Of a stretch of DNA of 64,000 nt, positions 7,083 through 53,429 are shown piece by piece (within the stretch, counting starts at the first letter, position 1; every line of letters begins with the position of its first letter). The stretch comes from Verrucomicrobiota bacterium (GTDB lineage: Bacteria; Verrucomicrobiota; Verrucomicrobiia; Limisphaerales; UBA11358). The stretch spans positions 104,622-168,621 of the forward strand of contig JBEKHY010000003.1 in assembly GCA_050012035.1 (NCBI GenBank), given 5' to 3'. The notes beneath the pieces are model-generated. The model was not told the origin of the DNA and did not search any database. It saw only the letters and a program-made list of their open reading frames with translations. Made by a program: the position numbers and the translations under genes.

Positions 7083-7235
7083 GAAAAGTGACATGTGGCA
7101 AGTGATGCCAAAAAGTGGCAAGTGGCAAGTGGCAGGTGACAAGATAAGCCGCACGCCGCATCCGTGTCACGTGTCACGTGTCACGTGTCACCCGTCACCT
7201 TTCCCCCGTCACGTGTCACCCGTCACCCGTCACCC
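7083..7235 (+). repeat. GTGACA/TGTCAC heptad hairpin element, expanded copy
   Basis: Same ~100-bp core as 4306-4413, with additional GTCACGT/GTCACCC heptamers (7165-7235). Confidence 0.85.
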
Positions 7236-10200
7236 TCGGAGTGGCATGGCCCTGGTTATCACGTTGATCATGCTGTCGGTGACGCTCGTCATGGCCGTGG
7301 CCTTTCTGGCCATCAGCCGCCGCGAACGCAACGCCGTCACCACCACCACCGACACCGCCACCGCCCGGCTGGCTGCCGACGCCGCGCTCGCCGGCGCCGA
7401 GGCGCAAATCGTCGCGAACCTCTTTGCCTCCACCAATGCCGCCGCCTACAACTTCGGCCTGCTCGTCTCCACCAACTACATCAATGGCTACGGTTTTAAT
7501 CCGGCGGGAGGCGCCAACCCCACCAACGTCAATTTCGATTACACGTACAACGGAGCGGCGTTCAAGGCCGACGACCTCAATCAGGATTTCGCCAATCTGT
7601 TTTTTCTCCCGCGCGTGCCGGTCTATATGACCAACCTCGTCTTCCACACAAACGAAAACCGGTTTTATCTCGACCTCAACCGCAACGGCCGATTCGAGGA
7701 TACGCGCACGAACGTGCCCAACGTGGACTATCTGGGCGTGACGAACGGCACCATTCCCGAAGTCGGTGACCCCCAGTGGGTCGGCGTGCTGGACCACCCC
7801 GACGCGCCGCACGGGCCGAACAACCGGTTTGTGTCGCGCTACGCCTTCATCGCCGTGCCCGTCGGCAACACCCTCGACCTCAACGCCATTCACAACCAGG
7901 TCCTCAACGAACCCAGTGCGCCATCATCCATCCCGATTACGATTAACCCGCCGGCGAACGGCGACGGCTATTTCCGCAATCAAGGCGTTGGCTCCTGGGA
8001 AATCAATCTGGCCGCGTTTCTGGCCGACTTGAACACCAACCAGTGGGGTGAAACCATCGATCCGCCCAATGTTCAACCCAGCGCTCCGACTTATTACCAA
8101 TACAACGAACCTAAAAATTATAATCACGGTTACGCCTTTGACGACGCCCGGGCGCTGCTGGCTTACCGTTACGCGAACGATTACAATTCACTCGCTTCGG
8201 TGGACAGTTTATACGGCGTCGCTGGTCTCGGACACTTCGCGTTCTTATACGACAACATTGACGGTTATTCGGACGGGCCATTGATGACGACCTTGAATAC
8301 CAACGAATTTTCCTCCCCGGACAGACCCCAGTTGCCGTGGGCGGGCGCGGACAACACCAATCAATTCTTCACGCCGGAGGAATTGTTTGACACCAACAAA
8401 ACCGGAATCGGCGCGGCCGTGCCCCGTTTTACCGACCGCCTGCTCGCCGCCGGCACGAATACGTTCGGCGGCACCACCGTTCCCACCTACGACCGCTACA
8501 CGTTTTACCGGATGCTCGACGAGCTGGGTTCCGATTCCGTGCCGGACTCGGGCAAAATCAACCTCAATTATTCCAACGCCGTCGTCCAAACCGACCGCAA
8601 CGGAAGTATCACCAATATCGCCGTCATGCCCGGCGCAGAAACCAATTTCGTTCCGTGGACGACGACCAATTTCTTCCTGGCGGCGGCCGACCGGATGCTG
8701 CGCCTTTACAGCAGCAACTGGTTCCAGGGAAGCTCGTTCGACTATTACACGAATTACACTGCTGTCACCAACTGGATCTATGTTGACCAGTCCAATTATC
8801 TGGCGACTTATTACGGTATCTACACGAATTACTTCTCTTATGTTGATGCGCAGGGCCGTTATATTTGGAACGCGCCCAACGGACTTGGTCTCACCAACGT
8901 TCCGTTTTATGGCATGACCAACCAGGTGCCTGCGTTTGGCATCACGAACATTCCGGTCTGGGTGAACAACCAGTTTGTCTATACGCCCGCCGTCAACCGC
9001 CTGCTCCAACTGGCGGCCAATATTTACGACGCAACAACGAACAACAGCATCAACGGCTCACCGGATTATCCGCACGTCTTCCGACCGCTGTTTTCGCGGG
9101 ATGCAAACAGTGCGGGCATTCGCGGCATGGGTACCAATCTCTTTGTCAGCGGCTATGCTGAAGTTACGTCGGTCAACGTAGTCAACGGCGTAGTCAACGA
9201 CCTTCAACTCTCTCTCCCCGTTAACGCTTCGGCTTTGGCCACGACGAACGTTGCCGTCCACAACATGCCGGTGAATGTGTATGGCGTGCCGTGGATTATT
9301 GGCGCGAAGAAAGGGTTTCCGAACTTCAACGAGTTCTACATGGAGAGCGCCTTCCGGCTCACGCGCAAGCTGATGGTCACCCGCCAGAGCACCAATATGT
9401 CGACGCCGGCGCCGCCCCCGTCGAGTCCATTCTGGGGCTATTACGTGATGTATAATCTGAGCCTCAGCAACCATTTTGGTGTGGAATGCTGGAACTCCTA
9501 CCACTCCAATTACACCCGCCCGCTCACCATTTACATCACCGATGATTTGACGATGATACTGACCAACGACGAAGTGATGGGCGAAGGAGGACAGCTCTTT
9601 AACAACGGCTTCAGCAACCATCTGTTCACCAGCGTATCGGTGACGACCAACTCGTGGCAGGGTTACATTCCCGGCAGTCAATTCGCTCCGCTTTCATTCC
9701 TGACCAATTTCCCGGACCCATCCGGTTTGGGAATCATACCAACGAACTTTGCCGCCATACCGGATTCGCGGTATATGTTCAACGGCAACTCTCCCTATCT
9801 GACCACGAATCTGGATTTGTGGTATGAAACGACTGGCACCGGCTTTGGCACATATCCGGAACCGCACTGGTGGCTGACGATGGCCAATAACCTGCGATTG
9901 ATTATGGTGGACACCAGTGATCCGAACAATGGGAAGGTCATTGATTACGTGCAGTTGGCCGGGCCGAACAGCCTTCGGGATTTGACAGCGGAAATCCAGA
10001 GGGGGTATGACACGAGCCCGACCACAAACTACAATGATCTATGGGACACGAACCAAATTAGCCCTACCAGTGCTCCCAACGGAATTGCCAACCAGTATGC
10101 CATCTCCCAGGGAAACGGAAATCCAACCTGGACTCAAACCTTATGGGGCGACCAGAAGATGGCTTATGATGCGATGAATGCTTTTCGCGCCTTCACGATT

Positions 10201-20965: not shown

Positions 20966-21208
20966 GTGTTTCGCAAGAGTGGCCAATCTATGACTGCAAC
21001 CAATGAAGATTTGACTAAAGCCGTTCTCGCGCTTTCCAGCCTTATGGCAACTGTGCTAGAGATGCAGGCGACAATGGCGGGGATTGTGACGCCTTTGGCG
21101 TCAAATCTGAACGGGAAGGAGAAAGCAGATTTACTATACGCCGTGCAAGAAGGTCGTACTCTTGCAGCCGGGTTACGAGAGACTGCCAAACAATTGGCAG
21201 AGTCGTAA
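20966..21208 (+). CDS. Hypothetical small protein (transposon passenger)
   Basis: 80-aa ORF inside the IS. No recognisable motif. An alternative start at 20990 is possible. Confidence 0.35.
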   Translation: MFRKSGQSMTATNEDLTKAVLALSSLMATVLEMQATMAGIVTPLASNLNGKEKADLLYAVQEGRTLAAGLRETAKQLAES

Positions 21209-21343
21209 CCGTGCGGTTTGAATCTACTTTCAATCTGTCTTGATTGTCCATTTGTTGTTTCACCTCCTTTCATTGGGAAAAAATTTCTCATGGCGAACGC
21301 AGAACATTTTTGGGCGCGGAAATCAATCATAATTTACCCTTTC

Positions 21344-22306
21344 TTATTGACTCGTTGCATTGTCAATCAGTTCTTCAATTGTCCATGCCCTGTCCGTCAA
21401 GCCTACGCCGTGCGCTGGCGTTGTGCCGAGCGTATGATGAATTTTGCAAAAGTTGTAAGCGGCAACGAACAGACTGACGGCGTGCCGATGATTGGTCAGC
21501 TTGCGTGAATAGCCTAAACCCAAACGGGCAAAGCGTTTGTTGAAGTGGCGGACAGACAGATTGGCGCGTTCAACAAATGACGTGCTGATTCTGTCCGCGC
21601 GCGGCGCTCCGGCGCGAATCCGCACGCGAACGCCCGTGCAACGTGGCGGCGAATATCGCCGTTGCGCCTCCACGCGCTCATTGAGCGGCGTCTCGTAAAT
21701 CTTTTGCATGGTGGCAAAGTCCAAGCGTTCCAATAGATATTTCCTGATGATAAATGGATAGGAACGCCATGAATCGGTTGTGATTTGAATGCGGCCAGCA
21801 ATCCGCGCGGCCACATCCGCGATAAAGGTGTCCGTGTTGTCAAAATCACGTTTGCCGGTGTGATAGCTGACAATGAATTTCTCGCGCGCGGTGACGGCAA
21901 GATAGGTGTATTGGTCGCCGCGCTCCACATGGCTTTTAATCGTTTGCCGTTGGCTCGCTCCGACGCGCGCCCACAGTTCGTCTATTTGCAAAGAACCAAT
22001 TGTGAGATTGCGGACAACTCTATCGTGAAACGCATCGCACTTTTGCCCGACTGTTGCCAACACATTTAAGACCGTGTTTGGAATGCAATTTACCAGGCGC
22101 GCAGTCCCGCGAACGCCAACGCCCTCGGTCAAGAGCTTGATGATCTGAACCGCTTTGTCGTGGTCAATCCGCAAATCGTCCAACGGTTGCGCGGCGGAAA
22201 ATGATTTGCCGCATCGCAGACATTGGAAACGTTGCACCATACGATTTTTATTCCGATATGTTCCTGACTTTTTACTCTCACCGCCACAACAACAACACGT
22301 CGTCAT
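21344..22306 (-). CDS. IS1-family-like DDE transposase
   Basis: 320 aa. N-terminal Cys-rich zinc finger (CCCCGG...FQCLRCGKSF). DDE-context motifs IDELW, ITTDSWRSY and TSFVERANLSVRHFNKRFARLGLGYSRKLTNH...YNFCKIHHTLGTTPA, as in single-ORF IS1-type transposases. Confidence 0.8.
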   Translation of the reverse strand: MTTCCCCGGESKKSGTYRNKNRMVQRFQCLRCGKSFSAAQPLDDLRIDHDKAVQIIKLLTEGVGVRGTARLVNCIPNTVLNVLATVGQKCDAFHDRVVRNLTIGSLQIDELWARVGASQRQTIKSHVERGDQYTYLAVTAREKFIVSYHTGKRDFDNTDTFIADVAARIAGRIQITTDSWRSYPFIIRKYLLERLDFATMQKIYETPLNERVEAQRRYSPPRCTGVRVRIRAGAPRADRISTSFVERANLSVRHFNKRFARLGLGYSRKLTNHRHAVSLFVAAYNFCKIHHTLGTTPAHGVGLTDRAWTIEELIDNATSQ

Positions 22307-22541
22307 TTTTAGCTCGACTTTCTTCGGCCAAAACTCTAACGTGCCCTTGTATCTGCAAGGATATGCAATCAGTTAGGTCTTTGGCCTACGGTTGCGCCCT
22401 GCCGGTGCTTAGAACCACTGACAGGGCATGATTTTAGTTTTGTTCTTTGGGATTAGGGCGCGGTGTCTTGCGCGAATGAAACGCAATTAACCGTTACGGC
22501 TTGTTCAGCCCCGCGTCCGTTCTCGAAAACTGGTTGTTTGA

Positions 22542-22615
22542 ATGGCTGGACAGGAATTGAACCTGTATCTTGCCCCTTCGCATGAGGCTGCTCTGTCCAT
22601 TTGAGCTACCAGCCC
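22542..22615 (-). tRNA. tRNA-Arg (anticodon GCG), located inside the transposon
   Basis: The reverse complement folds by hand into a cloverleaf: GGGCTGG-TA-GCTC-AAATGGACA-GAGC-A-GCCTC-ATGCGAA-GGGGC-AAGAT-ACAGG-TTCAATT-CCTGT-CCAGCCA-T. Position 1:72 is a G:A mismatch and no CCA is encoded. Confidence 0.75.
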
Positions 22616-22647
22616 TTCCCCGGCGGCAGTAACCCGCCGGGGAAATT

Positions 22648-23043
22648 TTATCCGGCCATTTCTGCCTTTCGTTTGTAGGTTCGGTTTCCTTCACCATCGG
22701 TCGTGATGATGATGAAACCCACCTTGCCAAGCCGGGTCAAAACGGTGCTTATCGCCGAACCGAAAATTCGCTGGCGAGTGTCAAAGCCGCGACTTTGCAG
22801 AAGCTCCCGAACCCTAGCCGTGCAAAACACCTGCTCCGGTTCGGCGTCAAATATGTTTCTCACGGCCTCGGTTATTCCAAACGGAGTAGTTACACCGTTT
22901 TGGCTAGTTGGTGATTGTGTGATTGAATCGTAGCGCCGTTGCGCTGATTCGAGCCGGGCAATGATTTTACCAAGCTCTTTGCAACGCAGTTCGTGCTTAA
23001 CCAATTCAGACCTTACTTGTTCTAATGTTATTGTGTTTTTCAT
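22648..23043 (-). CDS. Hypothetical protein, possibly winged-helix (transposon passenger)
   Basis: 131 aa from ATG 23043; the track ORF starts at 23085. AT-rich. The C-terminal part (AISTVLTRLGKVGFIIITTDGEGNRTYKRK) looks wHTH-like, which is a weak inference. Confidence 0.45.
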   Translation of the reverse strand: MKNTITLEQVRSELVKHELRCKELGKIIARLESAQRRYDSITQSPTSQNGVTTPFGITEAVRNIFDAEPEQVFCTARVRELLQSRGFDTRQRIFGSAISTVLTRLGKVGFIIITTDGEGNRTYKRKAEMAG

Positions 23044-33087: not shown

Positions 33088-35238
<2,151 letters not shown>

Positions 35239-35256: not shown

Positions 35257-35457
35257 GTGAAGACGACGCTGCCTGAACCTGAAATTGTCACGCGCAAGGG
35301 CAAGCCCGTTTCCGTCATTCTGCCGATTGCCGATTACGAAGAATTGCTGGAACGGGCCGAAGATGCCTCTGACATTGCCTGGCTGAAGGCTGCCCGCAAA
35401 AAGCCGCGACAATATCGTCCACTCGAAGATTATCTGGCCGGACGCCGTCGCCGCTGA
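35257..35457 (+). CDS. Phd/YefM-type antitoxin
   Basis: 66 aa (GTG start). The pattern ...VTRKGKPVSVILPIADYEELLERAEDASD is the typical Phd/YefM N-terminal fold pattern. Sits 2 nt before a RelE/ParE gene. Confidence 0.8.
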   Translation: MKTTLPEPEIVTRKGKPVSVILPIADYEELLERAEDASDIAWLKAARKKPRQYRPLEDYLAGRRRR

Positions 35458-35459
35458 CC

Positions 35460-35714
35460 ATGTATCGCGTGTTCCTTGAACGCTCGGCCGAACGCGACCT
35501 TGGCCGTCTTTCCTCCGAGGTTCACGGCCGCGTTATTGCGGCAATTCAGGAACTCGCGAACAATCCGCGCCCGCCCGGTTGCCGCAAATTGGTTGGCAGC
35601 AAAAACGACTGGCGCATTCGCGTGGGCGACTACCGGGTGATTTATGAAATTGCCGATACCATCCGCGTGGTGCGCGTCAACCGCGTCCGCCACCGCCGTG
35701 AAGTGTATCGCTGA
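35460..35714 (+). CDS. RelE/ParE-family toxin
   Basis: 84 aa. Has ...AERDLGRL...[42 protein letters not shown]...[12 protein letters not shown], the hallmark RelE/ParE pattern. Confidence 0.85.
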
Positions 35715-35721
35715 ATTTGAT

Positions 35722-35856
35722 ATGAAAATCACCGAAGACGTCCGCAAATACGCCGCCGAACAAGGCATCGCCGAGGAAGAAGCCATAAAAAAGGGCATGG
35801 AAGCCAAGTCGAAGGAGTTTGTAGAAAAAGGCGCGGAGGTTTACGCGAAGATGTGA
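35722..35856 (+). pseudogene. Displaced duplicate of the thiC 3' end (last 44 codons plus stop)
   Basis: Encodes [44 protein letters not shown]. The functional thiC C-terminus (35104-35238) is [44 protein letters not shown], so 40/44 aa are identical, with many synonymous differences. Confidence 0.85.
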
Positions 35857-35866
35857 TATGTCAGCA

Positions 35867-36865
35867 TTATTTTGCGATGACTAGTGACTTAAACTCATCG
35901 AACTGACTGGTATTTAAGTTTCCTACAATTTTACGAAAGGCTTCGTCAACAATTTGAAGAGTTATCCTTACCACTCCAACATCCAAAAATTTATTCCCTT
36001 GTTTCGCGTAAGGAGGATATTTCTGCTCATACGCCGCAAAAGCATTGGCGCCTAGCTGCAACTTTTCATCCAGCACATTGATGGATTTGATTCCAGCCTT
36101 GTTCATCTCTTCAATCACCATCCCGATCATCACAGCATCTGAACGTTCTCGGTTTGGAAATTGTTTTTTGAGATAAGCAGACATCGTATCAAAATTTATT
36201 TCTGTGTTTGAGGTCTCTTTTGGGCGATGCACAGCACCAGATGCCCTTTTGCGAGATATCTTGCTCGACTTAAAAAACATTTCGAAGTGCTGATCCGCGA
36301 CATAAAACAGTCCGCTCAACGCATTGAAATCCCGCTTTAATTCCGACGGCACGGCATTGGGTGTTTTATAATCCAAATAATGCGAGATGATCGACCATGC
36401 ATGCATTGAGATAGTCCTAACTTGAATCTCAAATCGCAGCAATTTTAGTCCGTCATATCTAGGGCCTTTGTGAGAGCGAGGAAGAGTGGCAATTAAATGA
36501 ACTGACAAATAGCCGAAAACATTTTCTTCTTTTGTAACGCGTTTATCATCGACCTCGACAATTTTGAAGCTCTTCCTAAGAACGGCAAATACGCGATCTA
36601 AATCAGATAAAAAAAGGCAAATGATCCGAAAACCCAAAATGTCATTGAGTTGATTAATTGGGTCAGCGAGTTCATCTCTCTCTGCTTTCTTAATTATTGA
36701 GTCGAAATTCTTGATTCGGTGTTCAATCGCATGAATCGGTATTTTTGCGCCTTTGAGCTGCTCGCTAAGAATAAATTGCACCTCATCCTCCAACCGCGCA
36801 TACAGTGGTTGAGATGAATTGTATTGGGCGAGTAGCGCTGATTTGTCCAAAACGACCGTTGCCAT
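35867..36865 (-). CDS. RelA/SpoT-domain nucleotide pyrophosphokinase (small alarmone synthetase / toxSAS-like) with an uncharacterised C-terminal domain
   Basis: 332 aa, clearly AT-richer than neighbours. Synthetase motifs: HRIKNFDSIIKK, NDILGFRIICLF, FGYLSVHLIA, FEIQVRTISMHAWSIISHYLDYK. The ~130-aa C-terminal extension has no recognised motif. Confidence 0.85.
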   Translation of the reverse strand: MATVVLDKSALLAQYNSSQPLYARLEDEVQFILSEQLKGAKIPIHAIEHRIKNFDSIIKKAERDELADPINQLNDILGFRIICLFLSDLDRVFAVLRKSFKIVEVDDKRVTKEENVFGYLSVHLIATLPRSHKGPRYDGLKLLRFEIQVRTISMHAWSIISHYLDYKTPNAVPSELKRDFNALSGLFYVADQHFEMFFKSSKISRKRASGAVHRPKETSNTEINFDTMSAYLKKQFPNRERSDAVMIGMVIEEMNKAGIKSINVLDEKLQLGANAFAAYEQKYPPYAKQGNKFLDVGVVRITLQIVDEAFRKIVGNLNTSQFDEFKSLVIAK

Positions 36866-37106
36866 TGACGCTTTGTAACATAGAGTTCAACTTCAAGCAC
36901 CATAATTGTCTTCCTTCAGACCGAGGTTCCGCGCGGAGTTTCAAGGCTTCAAGAGGCCGGCGAAATTGGTCCGGTGACGCCATAGCAGGAACAGCACGAA
37001 GGCTATCGAAAAAAACTGCAACCGGGGGTTGACCTGTCTATTGCTTCACACTTTAGCGTTTCCTGCGTCATGGCCGTGTGGCCATGACGAAACTGAACAA
37101 TGAACG

Positions 37107-37310
37107 ATGGATGTGAATGAACCTATGAAAGAAAATGTTAATGTGAAGGAATGGGTTGCCATGTTCCAGGAGATCGGCCTGGACCAGGCGAAGAGGAAAC
37201 AATGGCACAAGCTGTTCGAGACCCGCCACCCGGCCGGACACCAAAGTTTTCTGGAGTGGCTGGGACTGCCGACTAAAGAGATTGATGAAATCCGGGCAGC
37301 CAGCAAATAA
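37107..37310 (+). CDS. Small protein paralogous to the C-terminal domain of the adjacent MerR regulator
   Basis: 67 aa. KEWVAMFQEIGLDQAKRKQWHKLFETRHPAGHQSFLEWLGLPTKEIDEIR aligns with VELWVEMLEAAGMDQNARKRWHTEFERRAPEGHDEFLVSLGIPQKEVARIR of the next gene. Confidence 0.55.
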   Translation: MDVNEPMKENVNVKEWVAMFQEIGLDQAKRKQWHKLFETRHPAGHQSFLEWLGLPTKEIDEIRAASK

Positions 37311-37367
37311 TCGGCACGCGGGATTGGTGGCGCCCGGCGCGCCGCCACCCTTCGGTTCCTGACGGCG

Positions 37368-37910
37368 ATGAAGACTTATTCGATTTCCAAGCTGGCGCGG
37401 GCATTTGGCCTGTCACGCAGCACATTGCTGTACTACGACCGGTTGGGGCTGCTGCCGCCATCCGGACGAACTGGTTCCGGATATCGCTGCTACACAGACA
37501 AGGATCAGCGGCGGTTGGAGCGGATTTGCTATTTCCGGGAGGCGGGCCTGACGCTGAAAGAAATCCGGGCCGTGCTGTCGTCGGGCGGCAAACCGGGGGC
37601 AAAGCTGGTGGAGCAGCGGATGCGCGAAACGGCGGCGAGCATTCTGAGCTTGAGAAACCAGCAGCGGCTTTTGGCGGTGATGCTGAGCCGGATTGCTTCA
37701 GGGAAACCTCCGCCGGTGGTCAATGTGGAGTTGTGGGTTGAGATGCTGGAGGCAGCGGGCATGGACCAGAACGCCAGGAAACGGTGGCATACGGAATTCG
37801 AGCGGCGCGCGCCAGAGGGACATGACGAGTTTCTGGTTTCGCTGGGAATTCCGCAAAAGGAAGTGGCAAGGATCAGACGGTGGAGCCGGGGGGAAGGGAC
37901 CCTGGAATAA
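37368..37910 (+). CDS. MerR-family transcriptional regulator
   Basis: Has the N-terminal MerR HTH (YSISKLARAFGLSRSTLLYYDRLGLLPPSGRTGSGYRCY...L.RI...REAGLTLKEI). Confidence 0.85.
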   Translation: MKTYSISKLARAFGLSRSTLLYYDRLGLLPPSGRTGSGYRCYTDKDQRRLERICYFREAGLTLKEIRAVLSSGGKPGAKLVEQRMRETAASILSLRNQQRLLAVMLSRIASGKPPPVVNVELWVEMLEAAGMDQNARKRWHTEFERRAPEGHDEFLVSLGIPQKEVARIRRWSRGEGTLE

Positions 37911-51558: not shown

Positions 51559-52053
51559 ATGGCCCAGAACAATTCGCCAATTGACCCGCGAGTCCGCATC
51601 GGTCACGTGCATTTGAAGGTGGCGGACCTCGAACGTGCATTGAAATTTTACCACGGTGTGCTCGGATTTGAGCTGACGCAGCATCTGGGCCGGCAGGCAG
51701 CGTTTCTTTCCGCCGGCGGTTATCATCATCACATCGGATTGAACATCTGGGAAAGCGCGGGCGGCCCGCCGCCACCGCCCGGCACGACCGGTCTGTATCA
51801 CCTGGCCATTGTGTATCCGACCCGCACGTTGCTGGCTGATGCGTTGCGTCGCTTGCTGGCCGCGGGCATCGAACTTGATGGTGCCTCGGACCACGGCGTG
51901 AGTGAGGCATTGTATCTGCGCGACCCGGACGGCAACGGCGTTGAACTTTACTGGGACCGTCCAAAAGAGCAATGGCCGCGCACACCCGATGGCGGCCTCG
52001 CAATGTTCACTCATGCGCTGGATTTGGACGCGTTGCTGAAAGAGGCTCCATGA
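51559..52053 (+). CDS. VOC (glyoxalase/dioxygenase) family protein
   Basis: Has IGHVHLKVADLERALKFYHGVLGFEL...YHHHIGLN...HLAI...ALYLRDPDGNGVELY. Confidence 0.85.
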   Translation: MAQNNSPIDPRVRIGHVHLKVADLERALKFYHGVLGFELTQHLGRQAAFLSAGGYHHHIGLNIWESAGGPPPPPGTTGLYHLAIVYPTRTLLADALRRLLAAGIELDGASDHGVSEALYLRDPDGNGVELYWDRPKEQWPRTPDGGLAMFTHALDLDALLKEAP

Positions 52054-52238
52054 AAGGCATGGAAGGATTGGAAAAGACCGGAATTTCAGCCCTGCCATCC
52101 AATCGCCGCCCGAGCAGTAGCACCAGATGGCATCTGGCAATGTTGCCATGTTGACGGCTGGCTGGATTGCTGGCAAGCGATGGCCGTGAAATTTCTCTTT
52201 GCCCGCTTGTCCAAATCAGCCACTCTCTGGCTAACGTT

Positions 52239-53429
52239 ATGATCAAGTGGATCAAAATTCGCGACTTCAAAAGCATTCGTGAAATCGAGTTAGAACTTGA
52301 TCCAGTCACGGTGCTTGTTGGTCGCAGCGGAACTGGAAAATCCAATCTCGTCCAAGCAATACGCTTCTTACGCAACTACCTCCTTAACCCAGTTGAGGCA
52401 ATCCAATACGAATTCGGATGGGATCGGATTGTCCCGGTTGGAGAAACGAAACCAAAAACATCGATCGAGGTATGCTTCTCAGTTCCTGGCGAAGAATCCC
52501 GATATACTTACTTCATCGGTTTTGGACCACCTGGCCTAACCCAGTTCCCACATAATGCTATGGGGCTAAAGGAGGAACGATTAAGCCTAAAAAATAATCC
52601 GATTTTCTCGCGGATCAAAAGAGAAAATAATCAATGGGAATGGAAAATAGTCCCGCAGGTGTCGCCTATGCCGCAGCACTATGACACACCGCTGCTAGGT
52701 CTTTTCCCATCGCTTCAGCAGGTGGTATTCGCTAATGCTGCCCTTTCCACTGGGATTGGCTACTATCACTTTCCTTCAACGACATTGACTTCTGTAAACG
52801 CGCCACAGCACGGCCAAGTTTTCTTACAAAAACTCCCCGGTCTTTCGGACAACGCAGCAAACTTTCGTGATGTCATGCGTGGTATCACTCAGGATTTTCA
52901 TCACCCGAACATCCGCAAGAACCTTACGGCCGCCTTGCAGGCTGTCAATCCGTCCATTGAATCTATCGAGCTTGATTCCCTAATGAATCCGTCGCGCACT
53001 ATCGTTGGCCATAAAGCCGCTGGCCATGTGTTTGAACTTTCCCTTGAACAAGAGTCAGACGGTTTGCGTCGCTTCTACGCACACCTGTTAGCCCTTTATC
53101 AGACACCCTCCAAGTTGGCACTTGTGTTTGAGGAGCCGGAGAACGCTATTTTCCCTGGTGCACTGTCCCTGTTGGCGGACGAGTTCAAAGCCGCACCGCG
53201 TGAAAATCGGGGCCAAGTAATTCTCACCAGCCATAGTCCCATGTTCCTCGATTCCTTCGATGTGGATAACGTCAGGGCGGTTGACATGCAGGACGGGAAG
53301 ACTGTTGTTGGTCGTGTTTCAAAAGAACAGCGTCAGGCTGTAAAAGACCAACTTCTTACCACGGGTGACCTGCTTGTTGTGGACAGAGCCAAATTGGACG
53401 AAGTCACGAAGCCGCAGCAGAACACATGA
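52239..53429 (+). CDS. ABC/SMC-type (AAA_21-like) ATPase
   Basis: 396 aa, AT-rich. N-terminus is IKIRDFKSIREIELELDPVTVLVGRSGTGKSNL (Walker A). C-terminus is LALVFEEPENAIFPG (Walker B) plus ILTSHSP (H-loop). Its stop overlaps the next start (ATGA at 53426-53429). Confidence 0.85.
   Translation: MIKWIKIRDFKSIREIELELDPVTVLVGRSGTGKSNLVQAIRFLRNYLLNPVEAIQYEFGWDRIVPVGETKPKTSIEVCFSVPGEESRYTYFIGFGPPGLTQFPHNAMGLKEERLSLKNNPIFSRIKRENNQWEWKIVPQVSPMPQHYDTPLLGLFPSLQQVVFANAALSTGIGYYHFPSTTLTSVNAPQHGQVFLQKLPGLSDNAANFRDVMRGITQDFHHPNIRKNLTAALQAVNPSIESIELDSLMNPSRTIVGHKAAGHVFELSLEQESDGLRRFYAHLLALYQTPSKLALVFEEPENAIFPGALSLLADEFKAAPRENRGQVILTSHSPMFLDSFDVDNVRAVDMQDGKTVVGRVSKEQRQAVKDQLLTTGDLLVVDRAKLDEVTKPQQNT

Follow-up and report, generated by a model that had tools for sequence, protein, structure and literature searches.

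The described systems that come closest to the gene reported here belong to the RelA/SpoT homologue (RSH) superfamily. In fused CapRel proteins (CapRel-SJ46, CapRel-Ebc), a single polypeptide carries an N-terminal synthetase and a C-terminal regulatory region, the antitoxin/sensor being a three-stranded antiparallel pseudo-zinc-finger domain (pseudo-ZFD) plus a helix, with a conserved YXXY motif serving as a plug for the ATP site (PMC9712102). The toxic small alarmone synthetases (toxSAS) PhRel, FaRel, FaRel2, and PhRel2 are synthetase-only toxins of phages and mobile elements, and bicistronic toxSAS, which also include unfused CapRel, are accompanied by a conserved adjacent, often overlapping antitoxin gene. 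Mycobacteriophage Phrann encodes PhRel as Gp29, with which a prophage excludes other phages (PMC7229694). RelQ and RelP (YjbM/YwaC) are housekeeping small alarmone synthetases (SAS) of Firmicutes, about 210-230 aa in length and ending in oligomerization helices. Here, we compare with these systems a 332-aa protein encoded on the minus strand (35867..36865; ATG start, stop codon at 35867-35869) of a 64,000-nucleotide stretch of a Verrucomicrobiota genome (contig JBEKHY010000003.1, positions 104,622 to 168,621), the whole of which is referred to below as the window. The gene, delineated from the list of open reading frames (ORFs), Pfam, its homologues, and an AlphaFold2 (AF2) model, is horizontally acquired and belongs to a large uncharacterized family. 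Like fused CapRel, the protein combines an N-terminal synthetase with a predicted C-terminal regulatory region in one polypeptide, has no separate antitoxin gene, and belongs to a family found on mobile DNA, including prophages; unlike in CapRel, the synthetase is of another lineage, nearer to RelP/RelQ, and the C-terminal domain (C-domain) is all-helical, moderately conserved with invariant polar residues, and common to effectors outside the RSH superfamily. In our assessment, the chances are evenly balanced that this is a single-gene growth-arrest or defense effector gated by its C-domain, akin to a fused toxSAS but distinct from CapRel.

The N-terminal half (residues 1-213, 36227..36865, minus strand), as delimited by AF2 secondary structure, Foldseek, and profile search, is modeled as a helix at residues 8-39, the synthetase alpha/beta core, and a long helix at residues 174-213, the last of which is very conserved and bears the motif ALSGLFYVADxHFEMF; the full-length AF2 model has a predicted local distance difference test (pLDDT) score of 89.8 and a predicted template-modeling (pTM) score of 0.78. 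A first-pass annotation made from the letters alone had described an RSH synthetase devoid of HD, TGS, and ACT domains, and this description holds: Pfam recognizes RelA_SpoT (PF04607) at residues 49-169 (36359..36721, minus strand; E 1.8e-22, 80.2 bits, cutoff 27), none of the other three domains gives a Pfam match at E up to 1, and the long-RSH model TIGR00691 reaches 24 bits, well under its cutoff of 499. As judged from this domain content, the protein is a member of the RSH superfamily, of the SAS class. The four synthetase motifs listed in the same annotation are all present, with their key residues invariant in an alignment of 36 homologues (41-88% identity). The RxKxxxSxxxK motif (RIKNFDSIIKK, residues 50-60, 36686..36718, minus strand), with R50, K52, S56, and K60 invariant, would hold the triphosphate of the donor ATP by analogy with R64, K66, S70, and K74 described in FaRel2 (PMC11782079). 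The DxxGxR motif (DILGFR, residues 75-80, 36626..36643, minus strand; D75, G78, and R80 invariant) supplies a predicted Mg2+ ligand, its aspartate, and the tyrosine of the G-loop GYxSxH motif (GYLSVH, residues 118-123, 36497..36514, minus strand; G118, Y119, S121, and H123 invariant), whose counterpart in CapRel is Y155 (PMC9712102), is predicted to stack on the acceptor base. The fourth is the ExQxRT motif (EIQVRT, residues 146-151, 36413..36430, minus strand; E146, Q148, R150, and T151 invariant). In addition, a family-specific GPRY motif (residues 134-137, 36455..36466, minus strand; G, R, and Y invariant, P in at least 90%) lies in the loop after the G-loop strand, where the HMMER alignment with YwaC is gapped, and this loop may shape the acceptor site.

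The donor-site, Mg2+, and G-loop motifs are all shared with RelQ/RelP, and these enzymes are also the best matches overall. A search of the family profile against the Protein Data Bank (PDB) ranked RelP/RelQ first, with E-values from 1e-28 (YwaC) to 4e-23, whereas CapRel (7ZTB/9ERV) was found at E 7e-6, long RSHs at 1e-4 to 3e-2, and FaRel2 only marginally, at 3.5e-3. The top Foldseek matches of the AF2 model were likewise RelP/RelQ, with target-normalized template-modeling (TM) scores of 0.73-0.83 for the best of them and 0.67-0.83 across the RelP/RelQ superpositions. Identity to RelP/RelQ amounts to 22-30% over residues ~30-200, and the NCBIfam RelQ equivalog NF053588 (GTPPhKinYjbM) scores 83.3 bits against a cutoff of 320; on these two grounds the sequence is not that of a RelQ/RelP orthologue, although RelP/RelQ are its nearest characterized relatives. 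The first-pass annotation had held that clustering with RelQ/RelP would speak against a toxic module, and that concern is thus half borne out, in kinship but not in degree. Unlike RelQ/RelP, the protein has a length of 332 aa because of an extra, discrete C-terminal domain, and the family has its own GPRY loop and a patchy, transfer-driven spread that reaches archaea, phages, and plasmids. Weak matches to Csx16 and LpxI_N were rejected as chance.

The remainder of the protein (residues 214-332, 35870..36226, minus strand), delimited by AF2 and profile searches, consists of a linker to about residue 222 followed by a seven-helix domain of ~110-115 aa. Modeled alone, residues 209-332 give a pLDDT of 88.4 and a pTM of 0.83, with no strand of 3 or more residues. 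The domain carries the motifs NxD (224-226), P-D/N-R (237-239), AFxxYE (275-280), and DVGVVR (295-300), and F276, E280, and R300 are invariant among the 36 homologues. Foldseek searches with this model yielded no match in the PDB (best E 1.2, TM <0.35) or in BFVD (best E 0.94), Pfam at E up to 5 gave no consistent family over 27 C-domain sequences, and PDB sequence searches with the single protein and with the 36-sequence profile returned nothing for this region; the extra domain of no recognizable type reported in the first pass therefore stands. DUF4817 (3 of the 27 sequences) and DED (1 of the 27) were judged chance Pfam matches, and matches to optineurin at E 0.15-0.36 were treated as noise. 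As reported for CapRel (PMC9712102), the enzyme changes more slowly than the region behind it: homologues share on average 37% pairwise identity in the C-domain versus 57% in the enzyme core, and nonsynonymous divergence (dN) from an 88%-identical orthologue on a related acidobacterial contig (L098) is 0.113 in the C-domain and 0.025 in the enzyme half, a ~4.5-fold difference. The ratio of nonsynonymous to synonymous divergence (dN/dS) between these two orthologues comes to 0.08 in the N-domain and 0.17 in the C-domain, indicating that both halves are under purifying selection, and the pairwise value of 0.17 gives no signal of positive selection in the C-domain between the window and L098. Synonymous divergence (dS) itself differs about twofold along the gene (0.66 in the C-domain half, 0.32 in the enzyme half), an asymmetry that may reflect within-gene recombination or domain-wise replacement.

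The C-domain is not confined to synthetases. A word-indexed homologue search with its profile retrieved 13 proteins, mostly fragments, and an exhaustive HMMER search over 1.84 billion representative proteins, used instead, retrieved 582 clusters; the architectures given here come from the best 150 of these 582. Among the clusters listed, the commonest setting is the ~330-aa synthetase architecture or fragments thereof. In three proteins from different phyla (P0257, P0277, and P0279), however, the domain follows a CAP12/Pycsar-type TIR domain (PF10137, E 1e-25 to 1e-26) that also matches the PADLOC PDC-S35 and PycTIR models. Elsewhere it follows two transmembrane (TM) helices (P0167), a larger membrane or unassigned region (P0173), or a class III nucleotidyl cyclase (PF00211, E 6e-15; L102:722-1633), the last of these (P0237) having a true length of 303 aa against a database call of 235 aa and lying between a HEPN ORF and a type IIG restriction-modification gene with N6_Mtase and Eco57I domains (L102 175-555, 722-1633, and 1787-4315, in that order). 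Two copies may also occur in one protein, either in tandem ahead of TPR repeats (P0140, a single example) or following a synthetase (P0056). The PDR, AFxxxE, and VGxxR motifs are largely retained in the TIR, TM, cyclase, and TPR architectures. Many short proteins made up of the C-domain only (e.g. P0033, P0133, and P0210) turned out to be full-length synthetases whose genes had been called too short, and these were not counted as stand-alone domain proteins. The domain thus appears to be a previously undescribed fold that is reused across effector classes, and its reuse on TIR, TM, and cyclase effectors lends indirect support to a role of the C-terminus as a cis-acting regulator or sensor. The likeness to CAP12/Pycsar-type TIR effectors lies in the same C-domain being fused C-terminally to PF10137 TIRs; unlike those systems, the effector here is a pyrophosphokinase, and its surroundings hold no gene for a cyclase or another signal-generating partner.

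The family is broad and patchy. Homologues number 891 at the limit of detection, and most of the 120 matches listed are ~320-350 aa long, with more than 90% query coverage. When a single genome was scanned for each species, 109 loci were recovered, of which 80 were kept for neighbor analysis. These 80 loci belong to Chloroflexota, Planctomycetota, Acidobacteriota, Bacillota, Actinomycetota, Bacteroidota, and Zixibacteria, to Alpha-, Beta-, and Gammaproteobacteria and several Deltaproteobacteria-type lineages, and, in six cases, to archaeal metagenome-assembled genomes (MAGs; Methanotrichaceae, Methanobacteriota, Nitrosopolaris, and three Bathyarchaeia). All-against-all ORF clustering in them found no conserved neighbor or antitoxin, no neighbor family being common to more than a handful of loci, and the immediate neighbors vary in size, strand, and family; the lack of a shared neighbor family indicates that the synthetase gene travels alone, unlike bicistronic toxSAS. 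In the window itself, the ORF list contains no small same-strand ORF adjoining the synthetase that would be plausible as an antitoxin, so that the first-pass remark on the lack of a separate same-strand candidate extends from this locus to 80 others. With regard to variant loci, a Photobacterium genome carries two tandem family paralogues (L071, 5938-6936 and 7041-8036), and in two MAG loci (L026, L066) the gene is broken into a pair of ORFs, possibly through pseudogene formation or a sequencing frameshift.

Several copies reside on mobile carriers. Eight IMG/VR contigs bear family members, among them a siphophage (L087) in which a full-length member lies between an ArpU-like late activator and HNH/terminase genes and which also encodes a DnaB helicase; a MazG-like NTP pyrophosphohydrolase gene (L087 3594-4208) lies 3.7 kb upstream of the family member (7920-8972). 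In the Mycobacterium abscessus prophages prophi68-1 and prophiGD04-1, the family is represented by gene 42, a 339-aa protein annotated as GTP pyrophosphokinase and 36% identical across 93% of the query, which is transcribed opposite to genes 41 and 43, with the replication-side genes 37-39 on one flank and the packaging genes (terminase, 49-50) on the other; gene 42 is not discussed in the M. abscessus prophage paper. Like PhRel, FaRel, FaRel2, and PhRel2, the family is carried by phages, occurring in temperate phages as a lone cargo gene. Full-length copies are also present on Bacillus mycoides and Streptomyces megaplasmids, and a 59%-identical homologue (L101) is, in a setting suggestive of defense, directly downstream of a 642-aa TIR_2/ThsB-like protein on an element that also encodes a rolling-circle Rep and tyrosine integrase (L101 3941-5869, 6001-7059, 8001-8708, and 10101-11201). 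Profile collections of phage and defense proteins contain related groups, namely phrog_9640 (residues 9-234, E 1e-41), phrog_4773 (residues 38-282, E 7e-12), and 32462 of PHROG, and the PADLOC candidate PDC-S33 (E 3.3e-15, 54 bits, residues 28-282 versus profile positions 50-300 of 349), with profile lengths of 330-365 similar to that of the family protein. These are computational groupings with no assigned function, the PADLOC candidates being unvalidated, and PDC-S33 is not mentioned in the searchable literature; because the matches are partial, they may represent a sister family rather than the same one. The family may also be one of the named, uncharacterized SAS subgroups of Atkinson 2011 and Jimmy 2020 (e.g. 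fpRel, divRel). A candidate is fpRel, an accessory SAS with a part in (p)ppGpp production in Pseudomonas syringae DC3000 (PMC7146990), whose listed range (Firmicutes and alpha/beta-proteobacteria) overlaps that of the family.

The composition of the gene in the window agrees with acquisition from outside. The ORF has a GC content of 41.2% versus 58.0% across the window, GC at third codon positions is 42% compared with 72% for thiC, and in a 150-nt profile the dip to 37-46% spans only ~35800-36900, i.e. the synthetase ORF alone, so that the foreign composition claimed in the first pass is upheld and confined to this gene. The orthologue on L098 is similarly AT-rich (GC 39.9% versus 56.7%).

The architecture, the intact catalytic motifs, the mobility, the absence of a partner gene, and the modular reuse of the C-domain are features of the family as observed. 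For toxicity, a defense role, the gating mechanism, and the substrate, we infer the following scheme. The N-terminal half would act as an intact RelP/RelQ-like pyrophosphokinase, transferring the beta-gamma pyrophosphate of ATP to the 3'-OH of an acceptor, and the helical C-domain would serve as a portable regulatory module that keeps the enzyme off until a cue arrives, most plausibly phage infection, or else another invasion or stress signal. Growth arrest, whether as abortive infection or as superinfection exclusion, would ensue. RelP/RelQ are tetramers and class III cyclases obligate dimers, and TIR effectors assemble just as pore-formers oligomerize. Because all four effector types depend on self-association, cue-dependent control of the oligomeric state, or of conformation, would be the most economical way for the C-domain to act, and because the fused effectors are unrelated to one another, an effector-specific plug of the active site of the CapRel type is less likely. 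Found behind varied effectors and in lone genes on mobile DNA, the C-domain resembles the part of a single-protein conflict system that regulates or senses. A wider proposal, which we put forward tentatively and hold to be somewhat less probable than an even chance, is that the C-domain is a new portable cue-sensing or oligomerization module gating at least four unrelated effector classes (pyrophosphokinase, TIR, TM, and class III cyclase), that proteins bearing it form a new class of single-gene immune or abortive-infection systems in bacteria, archaea, and phages, and that the synthetase version is a new RelP/RelQ-derived toxSAS lineage.

Several observations weigh against a gated defense effector and have to be set beside those that suggest it. 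The nearest characterized relatives, RelP/RelQ, are non-toxic housekeeping enzymes. The size of the positive patch at the acceptor site separates alarmone-making from tRNA-modifying enzymes (PMC11782079), and the predicted isoelectric point of the enzyme half varies across the family (median 6.3, range 5.3-9.3), which gives no support for a conserved tRNA-binding surface; we lean, weakly, toward a nucleotide as the acceptor. In 30 loci, the 148 ORFs within 3 kb are mostly housekeeping, with 4 of the 148 being integrases (Pfam, PADLOC), and no clear defense-island enrichment is seen in these loci, where defense-like matches are scattered and PADLOC hits few. Despite its foreign composition, the gene is also a long-term resident. 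Its dS between the window and L098 (0.43) falls within the range of the flanking host genes (0.25-0.92) and it occupies the same place beside thiC in two lineages, which argues against fast turnover. Finally, purifying selection on the C-domain and its invariant polar residues are more readily explained by binding of a conserved ligand or partner than by a sensor caught in an arms race.

These points lead to an alternative that we regard as unlikely but deserving of serious weight, in which the protein is a non-toxic, physiological RelP/RelQ-like synthetase of (p)ppGpp (or pGpp) whose C-domain serves oligomerization or allostery and tunes the stringent response. Such an enzyme would account for RelP/RelQ being best by both profile (E 1e-28) and fold (TM 0.73-0.83), for the intact donor-site and G-loop residues, for the mostly housekeeping flanking genes, and for the retention at the same locus, with host-like divergence and purifying selection on both domains, in two related genomes; moreover, the C-terminal helical bundles of RelP/RelQ are oligomerization interfaces (PMC11782079), and the part of fpRel in (p)ppGpp production would point the same way if fpRel is a family member. 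It fits less well with a RelQ equivalog score of 83 bits versus a cutoff of 320, with a patchy distribution across domains, six archaeal MAGs among them, with the foreign composition and the phage- and megaplasmid-borne copies, and with the likeness to the defense candidate PDC-S33. It is also at odds with the reuse of the C-domain on TIR and membrane effectors, which are cell-killing modules and not parts of the stringent response. Should the protein nevertheless be a regulated (p)ppGpp synthetase, it would represent a new input into the stringent response spread by horizontal transfer.

A different role for the C-domain, which we consider quite improbable, is that of a homotypic adaptor of the effector-associated or death-like kind, recruiting effectors to a sensor that is encoded elsewhere and carries the same domain, the TPR protein with its double C-domain being such a sensor. 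The domain is indeed small, all-helical, terminal, and common to several effector types, the conserved E280 and R300 could be interface residues, P0056 has two copies after its synthetase, and P0140, with two copies and then TPR repeats, looks like a sensor scaffold. However, P0140 stands alone, the synthetase loci have no conserved neighbor, and neither the 64-kb window nor the flanks of about 100 loci encode a second protein with a C-domain, whereas in known adaptor-based systems the partner genes are adjacent.

The protein is almost certainly not a true fused CapRel, i.e. a tRNA 3'-CCA pyrophosphokinase autoinhibited by a pseudo-zinc-finger and released by a phage capsid protein, because the layout of synthetase plus C-terminal extension without a separate antitoxin, the recovery of CapRel structures by profile (E 7e-6) and by Foldseek in the N-terminal half, and a YPPY at residues 283-286 of the window protein are offset by a CapRel match ~22 orders of magnitude weaker than that of RelP/RelQ in the same profile search, a full-length superposition on 7ZTB/9ERV with a root-mean-square deviation of 19-20 Å and TM scores of 0.36-0.40, a strandless C-domain with no PDB match where the CapRel pseudo-ZFD is a three-stranded sheet, and a YPPY that is not conserved, homologues having YPPF, YPPG, etc., with the consensus AFxxYExxYPP. 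The CapRel-like module suggested in the first pass is thus set aside, and membership of the fused CapRel group was rejected on the synthetase subfamily (by profile scores), the pseudo-ZFD, and the conserved YXXY alike.

The gene is best described as a fused, self-regulated RSH effector, which is a known kind, the new elements being its C-terminal domain and the reuse of that domain. If the gated-effector reading is correct, fused self-regulated alarmone-synthetase effectors would extend past CapRel to a second, much wider-spread lineage that reaches archaea, where (p)ppGpp signaling is largely absent, and a new sensor or regulator fold would join the modules that are mixed with TIR, membrane, and cyclase effectors in bacterial immunity. 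Tractable cases include prophi68-1 gene 42, the Bacillus mycoides megaplasmid copies, and copies on Paenibacillus chromosomes, which could show what the C-domain senses and whether a RelP/RelQ-like active site became a weapon.

The surroundings of the gene in the window bear on how it came to be there. The first-pass annotation had placed it in an island inserted at thiC, next to a RelE/Phd module, and these neighbors are present: thiC (33109-35238, plus strand; ORF list) is adjoined by a Phd-like gene (66 aa, 35257-35457), which is followed by a RelE/ParE-like gene (84 aa, 35460-35714). The terminal ~135 bp of thiC (35100-35238) are copied after relE at 35722-35856 with 87% identity, and a 70-aa ORF (35644-35856) ends in this copy of the thiC C terminus. 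The phd-relE pair, between the two thiC 3' ends, has a host-like GC content of 59%, unlike the synthetase, and appears to be the sole cargo there. The synthetase lies outside the duplication in convergent orientation, its stop codon 10 nt past the thiC remnant (which ends at 35856). The island description is thus partly right: the gene is foreign in composition and lies beside a putative thiC 3' insertion site, but outside the duplication that holds the host-like phd-relE pair. The orthologue on L098 likewise abuts a thiC 3' remnant (7108-7248), but the cargo between thiC and this remnant consists of four small unannotated ORFs (remnant counted), not phd-relE, and the genes on the other side of the synthetase also differ from those of the window. 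The occurrence of a thiC 3' remnant with different cargo in both genomes makes the thiC 3' end look like a recurrent insertion hot spot.

On its other side, the synthetase is preceded by an intergenic region (36866..37106, minus strand), examined by sequence and consensus scan and presumed to hold its own promoter, although the scan found no sigma-70-like site on the minus strand of this region. A terminator-like hairpin with a T-run (37031-37019, minus strand), ~150 nt upstream of the synthetase start, is the sole terminator-like site within 35600-37400 and, as predicted from its sequence, would shield the gene from upstream transcription. Beyond it, a 67-aa ORF (37107-37310) lies directly upstream of a gene for a MerR-family regulator (37368-37910, 180 aa) on the same strand and matches the C-terminal ~55 residues of that regulator at 53% identity (E 8e-19), being a stand-alone copy of its effector-binding tail. 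Further GC dips occur in the window at 21001-23000 (51%) and 52001-53000 (49%), compared with about 58%, and may mark other acquired segments.

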